Shown: in pieces, positions 25,998-63,881 of the stretch
How the letters are laid out: each line of letters opens with the position of its first letter
Numbering within the stretch: the stretch's first letter is position 1
NCBI GenBank assembly: GCA_021399345.1
Contig: JAAFKI010000094.1
Location: 57,561 to 121,560, forward strand
Direction: 5' to 3'
DNA from: Candidatus Heimdallarchaeota archaeon
GTDB taxonomy: Archaea; Asgardarchaeota; Heimdallarchaeia; Heimdallarchaeales; Heimdallarchaeaceae
Length of the DNA stretch: 64,000 nt
Notes under the pieces: generated by a model
The model's input: the letters and a program-made list of their open reading frames with translations, nothing else
What the model was told of the DNA's origin: nothing
Database searches by the model: none
Position numbers and translations under genes: made by a program

Positions 25998-27746
25998 CTA
26001 ATCATCAACTACTCCTGAATTTTTCATATCATTCAGTATAAGTTCAATCATCTCTTTTTGGTTTGTTTCTACATTAGATGTTTCAATTTCAATACTTAAT
26101 AACAGGGAACTTGTTTCATTATAGGTTATACTTAAATGGTCAACATCCAAGTCTTTCAAATCCGGATCATTACTAATATCCCAGACAAAGGTTGTAATTG
26201 TATTATCTTTATCATATTCAACATACTTTGTTAGAATCTCTTTCTCGGACATATAATTGTCTAGGTTCTCTACATTGATGCTGCGATTCAAGGACATTGT
26301 TATAACAAAATCTTTCAAGGCTTTTAGCTCCATTCTACTCTTACTCCAACGCAGATAAACAACAATAGCAATCCAGCAAACAATACTGATAATGAACATA
26401 ATCAGAGTACCGTATTTGTTCATTACACCTCCAAAGATGGTATCAGTCGCCCCATATTCACCAACAGCAAAAGCGAAAACCTCTAGAATGATACTTCCTG
26501 CAAGAATAAGTTCAATCATATCTATAGCTTCACCAGTTCTAGTATTAGCTTGTAGAACTTGATTCATACTTTTAGTGTTTCTGGTCATTGTTTTGGACAT
26601 ATTCCTCATCTGAAGTTCAGAGAGAGTAGCTATGTAATTTCTGATTCCGTCTAGTTCTGTTAATAGACCATTAATTATCTTGTTTGCGTCTTTTACTCTA
26701 TCCCTTGAAGTTTCGAGACCTTTATCAGCTTCATAGAAATCAATCAGATTAGAGATATTGTTTTCTTTATAAATTTTCAGTAAATCAAAAGTTGAATCTT
26801 TTAGAAATTCTTGAATTTGACTGACCAAACTTATTGTACTTGAAAGAAGTGTTATTTGTTCTTGAACACTATTAAGTGCATCAGTATTACCCTTTGCAGC
26901 TTCTTCTACAAGGAGTTTAATGTTATCAGATTGATCATAAAGTTCCCAAATTCTAGACATGAAACAATCCACGAAATTACTAATTGCATGTTGAATACCC
27001 CAGAATGTTAGTTGATATTCACTTTCTTCAGTAAAATCATCGAAGATAGCAAGAGTCCCTCGAGAACCTTTGAAGAACAGATTAGAACCAACTTGATGAG
27101 GCTTATGTCCTTCACCTAAAAGTTGGTTAATTTCTATTTCGCAGTCTTCACCATCATAATATTCAGCAATATTGTTATGCTTAATATTTATTTCCTCACC
27201 TATATAACAGATAGTTTTTGGTCTGTGCATAGGATTCCCAAAGATGATTTTAATAAAATTTCTTTGAAATTCTGTTAATAGACTGTCAATTACCATAGAA
27301 CTGTCTTGAGATAAATCTGCTACCACTCTAGAAAGTTTGTCTAAAGACATGAAACTGTTTTGTCCTTCAATCTCATCAAGATCTAGGGAATAAACAATGA
27401 AACCAGATTTTGAAATAAATATGGCCATTTCTTCGATTTGAACAACACCTTCCTCTTCTGGTAAATCTATAACTGCCTCAAGATTAACGAAACTATCTAG
27501 GATATAATCATTTACAAGTACCTTTGTGTGTTTTCCAGTTGACGTGAAAATTGGAACATCAGGTGACCTATCGATTATCCCAGTCAATAATGTTTTATGA
27601 GCTCCTTTTTCGATATCAAGTTTCTTATTTAACTCTCTTAGCTGATTGGAGTCAAAAGGAAGCCACTCAATAACAAAAACCTTTGGGTTTTTTATACAAA
27701 GAACTTCTGACAATTCATCTTTAATATTATGCGAACTTCGTGCCAT
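25998..27746 (-). CDS. Uncharacterised membrane protein, CorA-like architecture (alpha/beta domain, long helices, 2 TM, C-terminal soluble domain)
   Basis: Long coiled-coil-like helices precede two hydrophobic segments; no GMN motif. Confidence 0.7.
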   Translation of the reverse strand: MARSSHNIKDELSEVLCIKNPKVFVIEWLPFDSNQLRELNKKLDIEKGAHKTLLTGIIDRSPDVPIFTSTGKHTKVLVNDYILDSFVNLEAVIDLPEEEGVVQIEEMAIFISKSGFIVYSLDLDEIEGQNSFMSLDKLSRVVADLSQDSSMVIDSLLTEFQRNFIKIIFGNPMHRPKTICYIGEEINIKHNNIAEYYDGEDCEIEINQLLGEGHKPHQVGSNLFFKGSRGTLAIFDDFTEESEYQLTFWGIQHAISNFVDCFMSRIWELYDQSDNIKLLVEEAAKGNTDALNSVQEQITLLSSTISLVSQIQEFLKDSTFDLLKIYKENNISNLIDFYEADKGLETSRDRVKDANKIINGLLTELDGIRNYIATLSELQMRNMSKTMTRNTKSMNQVLQANTRTGEAIDMIELILAGSIILEVFAFAVGEYGATDTIFGGVMNKYGTLIMFIISIVCWIAIVVYLRWSKSRMELKALKDFVITMSLNRSINVENLDNYMSEKEILTKYVEYDKDNTITTFVWDISNDPDLKDLDVDHLSITYNETSSLLLSIEIETSNVETNQKEMIELILNDMKNSGVVDD

Positions 27747-27747
27747 T

Positions 27748-28377
27748 TTATCGCCTCACAAGTTTATTTGAAATTCTTAGAAAATATGGTTTGGAGATGT
27801 AACTTACATCCTCGCTTTCTAAGAAATCTAGCTGAAAATCAGAAACGTCACAATCAGGACAATCAATCTTGATATCAGGATGATCACTCATATTCATATG
27901 GAAGTCTAAATGAGTTTTGCAATGCTCACAGTAGAATAGATTATGCACTTCTTCTTGTACATCTTGAGGAATCAGTTTTAAAAAATTAAGACCAATATCT
28001 GTTATTCGATAAGCTGTAACAAAACCATGTTGAGACGTACTTAAACGTATTTTATCTAAAATATCTAGTTCTCTCAAATCCTCTATATCATCTACACCTT
28101 CATAGGACAAGTTAACTGTGAAGCTACTTCTACCGAAAAATTGGATGGAAGTTGGAGCATAGTCATATGTTTCATACGTTCCTTTTACAATTTGATAATA
28201 CATTACAGCCCATAAAGGTAGTTCCTTTACCCAAACCTTCTCACTATCTGTTTCCAGATAATGATCTCCACCCCTTACCCATTTTGTTAGATAATCGATT
28301 GTATAAAGTAATAACTGTTGATCTCTTGTTAAGTTATTAATATCTATCCTATCCCCTTTTGATGGTTCTAAAGTCAT
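27748..28377 (-). CDS. Uncharacterised winged-helix-like protein with zinc finger
   Basis: LTRDQQLLLY, AYRITDIGLNFL (wHTH wing) and CEHC...CPDC; 1 nt upstream of the next gene. Confidence 0.7.
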   Translation of the reverse strand: MTLEPSKGDRIDINNLTRDQQLLLYTIDYLTKWVRGGDHYLETDSEKVWVKELPLWAVMYYQIVKGTYETYDYAPTSIQFFGRSSFTVNLSYEGVDDIEDLRELDILDKIRLSTSQHGFVTAYRITDIGLNFLKLIPQDVQEEVHNLFYCEHCKTHLDFHMNMSDHPDIKIDCPDCDVSDFQLDFLESEDVSYISKPYFLRISNKLVRR

Positions 28378-28470: not shown

Positions 28471-29477
28471 CTATATCTTTTTAAGTACTTTCCACAGACG
28501 AATCTTTTTAATTTGATTTCTTGCCCCTGGTCCCAATTCTACGAAACAATAGCCCACGCATTCATTTTTGGGATTTATTATTTCTGCCATTATTTCGAAA
28601 TATGCTATATTGTATTGTCCCTCCATAATCGGGTGGATCTCGTACTGCTCTTCCTTGATACCTGGTAAAACTAAGTCCCACCCCTTAGAAAATGTAAAAT
28701 TATCTACCTCAATAAACTCCTTGGGTGTATAAGTACAATCCCGAATGAGTTGGCTATTACCCACTTTGTTGATATAGGTTCCATCATAATAGGAATTCTG
28801 GGGAAAGGCAAAAAGCATGATTTCCTCTTCATCAAAAAATCTAAGAGAGAACCATTCTCAATGAGACGCTGGATCAAATAATCTAAAGGGACCCCATTGT
28901 CTATCAAACCAAGATTTTCCGGTGACATTCATAATAGTCTTTTCTTTCGAATTATTAAGCAAAATCATCTTTCCAGTTGTAGGCATGTTTGGATAGGAGT
29001 AATAAACTGTCCGTTGTTGAGGATCATTTGGTAATCCCATGGCTAATACTCCATCATCTGCATGCCAGAAAGCCCCTTTACCTTTATTTAGATCAAGTTG
29101 GAGTTCAAAATCATCATTTTTTATAGAGAGATTTAATTTGTCTTTCTCTCGTTTTAAAGAGGCGAATGGTGAGAATACTACGCTATCCTGATTGCCATAA
29201 ACATTTTTCCTCTTCAGTATACTTAACCTTTGTTTGAAGAGATGTTTTCGTTTTTGGAAATCAGTAAAAGCCATATGAAGTATATAGAAATTAATTCTAA
29301 AAATCCTTAAATTAAAAATTGTAAACTGGTAAGAATAGAAATTTTCTATGTTTTCCTGATCTGTAAGATACCCGGTTATATACCACCAACCAGATACTTT
29401 CTTAGCGGTAGCCACTCTGCATCAAAATCACCATGATTTGCTTCTCTATAAGAAATTCTGAAACTTTTCTTTTTCAT
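28471..29477 (-). pseudogene. Disrupted AttH/CrtC-like (lipocalin-like) gene
   Basis: ATG at 29477 reads MKKKSF...EWLP, then a 1-nt frameshift near 29405 into KKVSGWWYITG...SWFDRQWG...SH. An in-frame TGA at 28858-28860 sits where W is expected (SH*EWFSLRF), and the frame continues into ORF 28471..28818. Confidence 0.85.
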
Positions 29478-29524: not shown

Positions 29525-30151
29525 TTATTTCTTCTTCTCAAGTTTTTTATCTTCTTTAGCAATTGTTTCTACAAGATTCTTGAAATTTTTAGGTTCTTGT
29601 TCTTCTTCTATTGTAAAAACCACAGGACGTCTTTTCCTTTCAACATCAAGAGCTCTAGCTATTTTGCCAGCTTCGTATTTTTCTTTAACTTGAGATTTCT
29701 TTCCAATCCACACATAGATTTCATCATAAGCATCAATTACAAATGAATCATTAGATTTGAGATTCTTATACTTAATAGGTATCTCCTTAGTTTGTATAGT
29801 GCCATCATCTTTCTGGATGATTTGAAGAAGTTTATAATCAACATCAAGTTTCTTTTCAAAATGTTTTAGGAAACCAGGTGTATCCCCTTCAACAACCTCA
29901 AAACTCACTAGATTTTTGAATTCTTCAGGTTCATCCCCGTCCATGACTGTTTTGATGAGTAAATCCTTGTTGTCTTCTTCCACAACTTTTGCTGTCCATG
30001 CGCCTACGGCTTTATCATCACAGTAAGATTTCTTTCCTAGCCAAATCCAAATATGAGTAGTAGATACAACTAGATAGACATCCCCATTAAGGAATTTGTA
30101 GGGTTCCTTCATTGGCATTAGTCTTTTTCTAACAACGTGGTAAACATTCAT
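29525..30151 (-). CDS. Two-domain gelsolin-like protein (Asgard 2DGel type)
   Basis: Two repeats: FLNGDVYLV..IWIWLGKKS..DK..G..GDEPEEF and LKSNDSFVID..IYVWIGKKS..EK..A..EQEPKNF. Confidence 0.9.
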   Translation of the reverse strand: MNVYHVVRKRLMPMKEPYKFLNGDVYLVVSTTHIWIWLGKKSYCDDKAVGAWTAKVVEEDNKDLLIKTVMDGDEPEEFKNLVSFEVVEGDTPGFLKHFEKKLDVDYKLLQIIQKDDGTIQTKEIPIKYKNLKSNDSFVIDAYDEIYVWIGKKSQVKEKYEAGKIARALDVERKRRPVVFTIEEEQEPKNFKNLVETIAKEDKKLEKKK

Positions 30152-62651: not shown

Positions 62652-63881
62652 CTAGAATAGTAGAATGAAGAAAAGAACCAAAATTGTAGTTGTTATAAGA
62701 TCTGCACTAGAGCTTAAGAGTGGGTTAACTAGATTATCCGGATCTAAACCTAATCGAAAAGTAATGAATGTAGCAGATAAAGCAATAAGGCCTACTAAGA
62801 GAAATGATAGAAAATTGGTTAGAAGTAATAATACTAATATTAAACCATACAATCCTATGGTCATTCCTTTGGGAAACATTGCTGTTCCTAGAAGACTCAT
62901 TACTGCTACTACGATTAAAGCGGCTGTTGTTATTCCAAAGAAATTAATTGATAATTCTTTATTCTTAAGTGATTTAAAGGATGGCGTCATAGTTCCTAAA
63001 TGTAGTTTGGTCGTACTGGTATTAGCTAAAATTGAACTTTGGCTACCCACAATACTGATTATCGCAGGATAGAAGACAATAAGTACTGGAACAGAGTTTA
63101 ATATATCTGGAAAGGAGGTAAGAACTGAACCAGTACCTGCAGCGATTAAACTTGTAATTGTAAGTACTGGTAAGGTTTGCACAATTCCTTTTCTAATATA
63201 CTCTTCTTTTCTAAATTTTATTATCAAAAACACAAATACAGCTATAACAAAAATAACCGTTGGGATTCCGAGATAATAATGAAGTTTCACTACAGGATTC
63301 CAAGGCCTATACAACCAACAAATTGCTACAAAAATAAGTGTTATGAGTATATCATTTATAGATGAAGTTATTGGATAAGCAAATACATCAGGATCACCCT
63401 TTTTTCTATAGATAAAGAAGGTTAGAACGAAAGTTATAGACAAGGATATAACAGCTGTAAGAGTAAATGTTGTAAGAGTTATAGCAAAAATTTTCAAAAC
63501 ATCTACAGGTAATAAATTTAATTTTAAAAGAAATCCAAGTATAGATGTTATGATGCTTATCAGAACAGAGTCAAATATTGTTAAGATTAGAATAAGCATT
63601 ATAAGATGTACAAATCTGTTTGTATTATTTCTCCAAGTTGGTTTCAAAGTTCCTAGATGTAATGCAGAACCAAGCTTTCCTGTTAGAACACCGTTGATAT
63701 CCCCTCTAACTGTCAATAACAATGGATAGATGAGGAAAATCCATGGAATATAACTAGATAAGGATTGCAAAAAAGTTGCAGCACTTCCAGCTGCTAATCC
63801 TCCAAGGTTAAAAAACAACCCTCCCGCTACTGCTAGAGTAAAACCAGCAAAAATTGAGAAGGAAGATTTGTTCTTTAACAT
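62652..63881 (-). CDS. Tandem MgtE-transmembrane (SLC41-like) cation transporter
   Basis: Two repeats: P..LTVRGDI..LHLG..DPDVFAYPITSSIND and P..S..GS..LHLG..DPDNLVNPLLSSSAD. Confidence 0.85.
   Translation of the reverse strand: MLKNKSSFSIFAGFTLAVAGGLFFNLGGLAAGSAATFLQSLSSYIPWIFLIYPLLLTVRGDINGVLTGKLGSALHLGTLKPTWRNNTNRFVHLIMLILILTIFDSVLISIITSILGFLLKLNLLPVDVLKIFAITLTTFTLTAVISLSITFVLTFFIYRKKGDPDVFAYPITSSINDILITLIFVAICWLYRPWNPVVKLHYYLGIPTVIFVIAVFVFLIIKFRKEEYIRKGIVQTLPVLTITSLIAAGTGSVLTSFPDILNSVPVLIVFYPAIISIVGSQSSILANTSTTKLHLGTMTPSFKSLKNKELSINFFGITTAALIVVAVMSLLGTAMFPKGMTIGLYGLILVLLLLTNFLSFLLVGLIALSATFITFRLGLDPDNLVNPLLSSSADLITTTILVLFFILLF

Follow-up and report, generated by a model that had tools for sequence, protein, structure and literature searches.

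A coupled gene pair from a Heimdallarchaeota archaeon encodes a GMN-less CorA-fold membrane protein and its predicted winged-helix partner

What do two genes do together that lie one nucleotide apart, one for a soluble winged-helix protein and the other for a membrane protein with two transmembrane helices, and where does the fused form of the pair in protists come from? We addressed these questions for a locus in a 64,000-nucleotide stretch of contig JAAFKI010000094.1 from a Candidatus Heimdallarchaeota archaeon (the window). A sequence-only reading of the window had described two ORFs of 209 and 582 aa separated by 1 nt (TAA-A-ATG, from the gene 1 stop to the gene 2 start), and the ORF coordinates match this description (Table 1). 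Every motif that it quoted for the two genes was found in the translations, with two corrections: SHNIKDELSEV, said to begin gene 2, is preceded by MARS, and the R and D of SLDKLSR...D are three residues apart rather than the two claimed. The sequence of the junction suggests that the two genes are translationally coupled. Across 21 further intact loci, the gap between the genes, with starts called mechanically, ranged from −16 to +20 nt. Each gene is single-copy in the window's assembly. The nearest homologues carry the name Heimdallarchaeaceae and, like a gelsolin gene close by, indicate a Heimdall-group Asgard host.

Table 1. Positions in the window of the gene pair and of the features of its products
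Feature	Position	Strand	Description
Gene 1	27748-28377	minus	209 aa; MJ1567 family (PF27231); soluble partner subunit; model pLDDT 86
Gene 1 winged-helix domain, ~residues 16-147	27937..28332	minus	inserted YDYAP β-hairpin, acidic third helix
Gene 1 CxxC..CxxC zinc ribbon, residues 148-183	27829..27936	minus	cysteines mostly lost in fused proteins
Gene 1 EDVSY..PY C-terminal segment, residues 188-209	27751..27816	minus	predicted to be the chief latch on gene 2
Shine-Dalgarno-like GTGAGG for gene 2	27754..27759	minus	within gene 1 end, just before gene 2 start
Gene 2	25998-27746	minus	582 aa; MJ1566 family (PF27230); CorA-fold membrane protein
Gene 2 enlarged cytoplasmic α/β region, residues 17-235	27042..27698	minus	contains the family's invariant polar residues
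Gene 2 CorA-like helical hairpin and long stalk helix, residues 240-405	26532..27029	minus	
Gene 2 TM1, residues 408-429	26460..26525	minus	G-E-Y end where CorA has G-M-N; conserved polar 409, 412, 422
Gene 2 TM2, ~residues 445-467	26346..26414	minus	followed by a basic stretch
Gene 2 C-terminal α/β domain, residues 480-576	26019..26309	minus	missing from short family members

Precomputed Pfam matches place PF27230 on gene 2 itself and PF27231 on every gene 1 homologue among the matches listed, at identities of up to 87%. These families, MJ1566_N (PF27230) and MJ1567 (PF27231), are both named after Methanocaldococcus jannaschii ORFs. The pair is a member of the catalogued but uncharacterised MJ1566/MJ1567 families, with which it shares gene order and coupling and from which it shows no family-level difference. 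No family scored above cut-off for either protein in a Pfam release without PF27230/PF27231, in NCBIfam, in PADLOC or among PDB sequences. Our literature search found no functional study of PF27230/PF27231 or MJ1566/MJ1567, a search for CorA combined with Asgard found nothing, and a broader search found no mention of MJ0711 or MJ1566 among the 20 papers listed. The earlier suggestion that this is an undescribed system holds with the qualification that both halves are already Pfam families.

We searched 400 Asgard genomes for the two genes. We found gene 1 in 50 genomes, gene 2 in 51 and both together in 48, where ~6 co-occurrences would be expected of independent genes (kin genomes are not themselves independent). 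The genes were adjacent and in the same order in 46 of the 48; in the two other cases, they lie at contig ends. The pair is patchily distributed, occurring in ~13% of Asgard genomes and in 10 of 24 in the window's genus. Split adjacent pairs were also recovered from Acidobacteriota, from Coatesbacteria and from archaeal-looking contigs, and gene 2 relatives were named from Thermoplasmata and Undinarchaeales; fused bacterial proteins served as seeds for the locus scan, so bacteria and archaea outside the Asgard group are undersampled. Collinear gene 1–gene 2 fusions made up 112 of the 239 proteins retrieved, and the linker between their two parts has a median length of 13 aa. Named eukaryotic fusions are from Pycnococcus, Mantoniella and Chromosphaera, with Atlas clusters labelled mainly Oomycota, and bacterial fusions are from Wallbacteria, Muiribacteriota, Planctomycetota and Myxococcota. 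Thus, the split pair in other archaea and the single fused protein in protists, both stated in the sequence-only reading, were found.

Individual loci and proteins vary on this arrangement. Many eukaryotic fusions carry the wrong label "WD repeat-containing protein 35," and the eukaryotic fusions P0071/P0091 have an added C-terminal domain of the ANKRD40-type ubiquitin-like (PF27687) or SprT-like (PF10263) kind. At L048 (G122:C85:3330-8910), one of two pair copies, ~3.3 kb separates gene 1 from the main gene 2 frame, and a short gene 2 start fragment with a stop directly follows gene 1. At L042 (G016:C1:914148-915890), from a single-contig genome, an in-frame TAG near residue 101 divides gene 2 into pieces of 101 and 476 aa, and at G283:C74:105-1336 gene 1 is present in two tandem copies ahead of one gene 2. 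The pair at L061 (JAIYDP010000015.1), from a "Verrucomicrobiaceae" MAG, looks intron-split and is spread over two contigs; these copies are probably eukaryotic contamination of that MAG bin.

A third conserved partner gene was ruled out, as no gene travels with the pair beyond genus-level synteny. A functional tie to the neighboring gelsolin or ABC/FtsX genes was likewise ruled out, their synteny being confined to the genus. The gelsolin gene (two repeats; window 29525-30151, minus strand) adjoins the pair within the genus only and is probably an accidental neighbor. Between it and gene 1, here only, lies a CrtC/lipocalin-like gene (window 28471-29415, minus strand) that is missing in three genus relatives; one in-frame TGA breaks its frame, reflecting either a pseudogene or an assembly error.

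CorA/Mrs2 channels are defined by a GMN filter and work as homo-oligomers. The structure predicted for gene 2 (pLDDT 89) contains a 90-residue helix that is continuous with TM1 and is followed by a short loop and TM2. All 50 of the top 50 Foldseek matches were CorA, Mrs2, ZntB or CmaX proteins (best E 1.6e-5). In VIA-align comparisons, gene 2 matched Campylobacter jejuni CorA with a Z of 15.0 (rmsd 1.9 Å, 127 residues) and Thermotoga maritima CorA with a Z of 14.1 (rmsd 4.1 Å, 160 residues); helices make up most of the CorA match, Z values of 13-15 against gene 2 are also reached by gp41 mimics and spectrin repeats, and whole-chain TM-scores are low (0.13-0.20). A CorA-type cytoplasmic domain, hairpin and long stalk are present, with the match strongest in the helical part, and, as in CorA, there are two C-terminal transmembrane helices with TM1 continuous with the stalk. 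Among the closest known systems is CorA/ZntB/Mrs2/CmaX (the 2-TM-GxN or MIT superfamily, PF01544; PDB 8zah, 4ev6, 8tmd, 8ts1), with which gene 2 has in common the cytoplasmic α/β region, the hairpin, the stalk running into TM1, the loop, TM2 and the basic stretch. Unlike CorA, gene 2 has a larger N-terminal region, an extra C-terminal domain (for which there was no Atlas match) and a predicted obligate winged-helix partner; we know of no CorA that needs such a partner. It also has neither GMN nor GxN after TM1, and no PF01544 match above cut-off was found on gene 2 or anywhere in the window's genome (88.6% complete). The window protein thus resembles a CorA-fold channel but stands outside CorA in its lack of GMN and of a Pfam CorA score. 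The CorA architecture with two hydrophobic segments and no GMN, proposed earlier from the letters, is in this way borne out by the model and the transmembrane analysis. The Atlas also contains structurally similar families, some from CPR bacteria (375-395 aa) as well as MJ0711_N (PF27233), which hint at a larger group of CorA-like proteins without GMN.

TM1 ends in G-E-(W/Y) rather than GMN. Across the GMN-less majority the loop that follows it varies: 4 of 132 sequences have a GxN close to the end of TM1, and none has GMN. TM1 is similar in the short and the long GMN-less members; within it, position 412 is charged or an amide in 93% of the family and position 422 in 75%. When gene 2 G429 is placed on T. 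maritima CorA G312, an ungapped register that is itself inferred, the polar residues 412 and 422 align with T295 and T305, and the hydrophobic residues 408 and 419 align with the M291 and M302 constrictions (residue roles from PMC12933068).

GMN was found only in the Acidobacteriota, P0208 and Coatesbacteria relatives of gene 2. P0179 belongs to an Acidobacteriota cluster and can be aligned with residues 19-387 of gene 2 (25% identity, E 3e-32). Its gene overlaps by 4 nt the MJ1567 gene that precedes it; the end of the protein is a canonical CorA pore with YGMNF and MPEL (PF01544 E 1e-20, 74.6 bits). The same pair with a GMN-bearing pore was found in P0208 and at five Coatesbacteria-type loci. 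Identity of these GMN members to canonical CorA jumps from ~10% to 30-63% at ~30 residues before GMN, and upstream of that jump they resemble GMN-less members. In the best tree, they are placed at two positions among the GMN-less proteins. Acquisition of the GMN pore by graft is likelier than its ancestral retention; an AU test did not reject a single GMN clade (p 0.13), and ancestral retention is possible.

Among the 25 genomes of the phylum Coatesbacteria, 10 carry a full-length canonical CorA and none of these has MJ1567, while nine carry MJ1567, eight of them with an adjacent GMN-bearing gene 2; MgtE is also present in three of four draft genomes tested. The pattern, seen in draft genomes, probably reflects a single evolutionary event. 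The Coatesbacteria loci show the gene 2 funnel and its gene 1 partner conserved alongside a standard Mg2+ pore. Of all the evidence, this canonical-pore pair, the sole CorA match in seven of the eight genomes that have it, argues most strongly for a CorA-type channel. In Asgard archaea, replacement of canonical CorA by the GMN-less pair was rejected: by hand count, CorA is present in 35 of 53 carriers vs. 267 of 400 genomes overall, and the pair is accessory to CorA. The window's own genome has no canonical CorA but does contain MgtE-like domains. A 422-aa frame (window 62673-63725, minus strand; G000:C21:120233-121285) encodes two MgtE-like membrane domains and could be a Mg2+ route in this genome.

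The winged helix that the sequence-only reading saw in gene 1 is supported by the model and by its structural matches, of which the best was to a Cdc6/ORC winged helix (Z 10.4, rmsd 2.7 Å, 99 residues), with PadR, MarR and TubR at Z 8-9. The core fold is like that of PadR/MarR regulators, the ORC/Cdc6 winged helix and the DarG C-terminal domain (7yk3) (Z 8-10), but gene 1 is unlike these proteins in its acidic recognition helix, its inserted hairpin and its C-terminal latch, which together point to protein binding. Specifically, in 96 of 104 homologues the third, would-be recognition helix carries a net charge of −2 to −6, and this helix lies within the predicted gene 2 interface; the protein as a whole has a pI of 4.7, and its wing is mildly basic. 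The winged helix resembles a module for binding proteins more than one for binding DNA. The family can dispense with the zinc finger: both CxxC pairs are present in 26 of 29 split proteins but in only 4 of 75 fused ones. From the EDVSY..PY segment, a short linker leads on into the gene 2 part of the fused proteins.

The predicted gene 1–gene 2 heterodimer gave an ipSAE of 0.79, compared to 0.01 for the best control, in agreement with the earlier proposal of a dedicated soluble subunit. Among solved complexes, 58 of 80 attain this mark, and among mismatched pairs 2 of 110 do; because the halves of split genes tend to pass, the score supports binding without proving it. The runs agreed in at least 92% of contacts, with partner pLDDT of at least 78. 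The predicted interface is formed by residues 72-96, 115-118 and 188-209 of gene 1 and residues 100-146, 168-177, 204-208 and 240-271 of gene 2. Conserved polar residues are enriched in it (5/7, p 0.008, and 9/19, p 0.007), the same alignments having defined conservation and driven the prediction. A PDB sequence search returned no solved sequence relative of either gene.

Drawing on the computed homology, coupling, fusion, fold and GMN-bearing members and on the predicted heterodimer, we consider it reasonably probable that the pair is an obligate two-subunit channel of the CorA superfamily, in which gene 1 completes and probably gates the funnel and the pore is exchangeable. Gene 2 would supply an enlarged cytoplasmic funnel, a stalk and a two-helix pore, and would form a ring like that of CorA, probably of five subunits. 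Gene 1, made in step with gene 2, would grip the cytoplasmic funnel through the YDYAP hairpin, the acidic helix and the EDVSY latch; it would make up the funnel's N-terminal portion and probably a piece of the gating sensor. The pore may come as an exchangeable module, GMN-less or canonical. Most members, the window copy included, are GMN-less and have polar or acidic TM1 rings; these would probably conduct cations without being strictly selective for Mg2+, and the two bacterial groups with an ordinary YGMNF pore would probably be Mg2+ channels. Among the points that speak against this channel reading are that the window copy is without the GMN filter of CorA, that the structural match is largely one of helices, that CorA is not replaced in Asgard archaea and that the Coatesbacteria pattern probably goes back to one event.

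In an alternative reading, the GMN-less majority, the window copy among them, is a nonconducting, CorA-shaped scaffold or sensor, with its activity at a conserved inter-subunit cleft and with the oligomer relaying a signal between membrane and cytoplasm. Almost all invariant residues are indeed cytoplasmic, the region after TM1 is variable and never has GMN, and eukaryotic members have gained ubiquitin-like or SprT-like domains. Arguing the other way, the polar positions of TM1, which share a single putative pore face, are conserved at 75-93%, and in bacteria this funnel occurs joined to a canonical Mg2+ pore. We regard a scaffold or sensor as rather unlikely. We find it very hard to credit that the pair is an abortive-infection or toxin-antitoxin module, with gene 2 a lethal pore that gene 1 keeps shut. 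The patchy distribution would suit such a module, and CorA-like defence effectors are known, for example, the CorA-family effector that acts in SAM-AMP type III CRISPR systems (PMC12255297). That effector is likewise a divergent CorA-fold membrane protein with another use, gated by a cytoplasmic input (PMC12255297), but the window pair has a different partner, no CRISPR context was seen for it and it had no PADLOC CorA match. Against the module, moreover, are the lack of any PADLOC match for either window protein, the lack of matches among 72,556 plasmids and 50,697 phages, a synteny that is stable within genera with no recurring third partner, and the retention of the fusion across protist groups. 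Least credible is a membrane-tethered transcription regulator, gene 1 being held by gene 2 and freed on a signal, for although gene 1 has a PadR/MarR-like winged helix, a zinc ribbon and a mildly basic wing, its recognition helix is acidic and lies in the predicted interface, its pI is low, it is covalently fused to gene 2 through a short linker in the 112 fusions, and there are no conserved regulated neighbors.

The sequence-only reading had further proposed that eukaryotes inherited the pair, as a fusion, from Asgard archaea. We examined this with an unrooted gene 2 tree of 377 soluble columns, sampled from an Asgard-biased profile. Twelve eukaryotic or presumed eukaryotic fusions (4 of these 12 rows bear a eukaryotic source label, the others being assigned by tree position) formed a clade with a Myxococcota protein and an unassigned prokaryote-like fusion (100/100), and a larger clade (100/97), of fused bacterial and Thermoplasmata-type proteins, encloses this one. 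The copies from Heimdall stand apart in a clade of their own (98/94). The gene 1 tree agrees and is broadly congruent. AU tests rejected the eukaryotes as sisters of the Heimdall copies (p 2e-5) or of the nearest Asgard copies (p 4e-8); with the Myxococcota-type rows counted as eukaryote-derived, Asgard sisterhood was again rejected (p 2e-5 and, in the most lenient version, p 0.008). Thus, homologues are present in both Asgard archaea and eukaryotes, but the two are not sisters; fused bacterial proteins group with the eukaryotes instead. The gene pair is not an Asgard-derived eukaryotic signature protein, and descent of the protist form from the window's archaeal lineage is rejected by these tests. 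Of the earlier proposal, the CorA-fold membrane protein and its dedicated soluble subunit stand, supported by the fold and the binding prediction; inheritance of the pair by eukaryotes from Asgard archaea does not. Myxococcota were not established as the donor: among 401 genomes, the gene is in only the seed genome, and in the gene 1 tree their copies nest weakly among the eukaryotes. Such rarity is as compatible with a transfer out of eukaryotes as with one into them.

Returning to the two-subunit channel, a wider version of it is conceivable, although we hold it only tentatively. The pair would then represent an unrecognized branch of CorA, present in all three domains, obligately two-subunit and gated via a winged helix, with a non-Mg2+, GMN-less pore that recombination can swap, and its fused form would have been present early in eukaryotes as a protist ion channel. 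The pair has no bearing on the Asgard ancestry of eukaryotes. The mislabelled protist protein gains a fold and a likely role. A partner-dependent CorA branch with two alternative pores would be a natural experiment on selectivity and gating, and because some bacterial members carry GMN, its function is open to a direct test with a standard Mg2+-uptake mutant.
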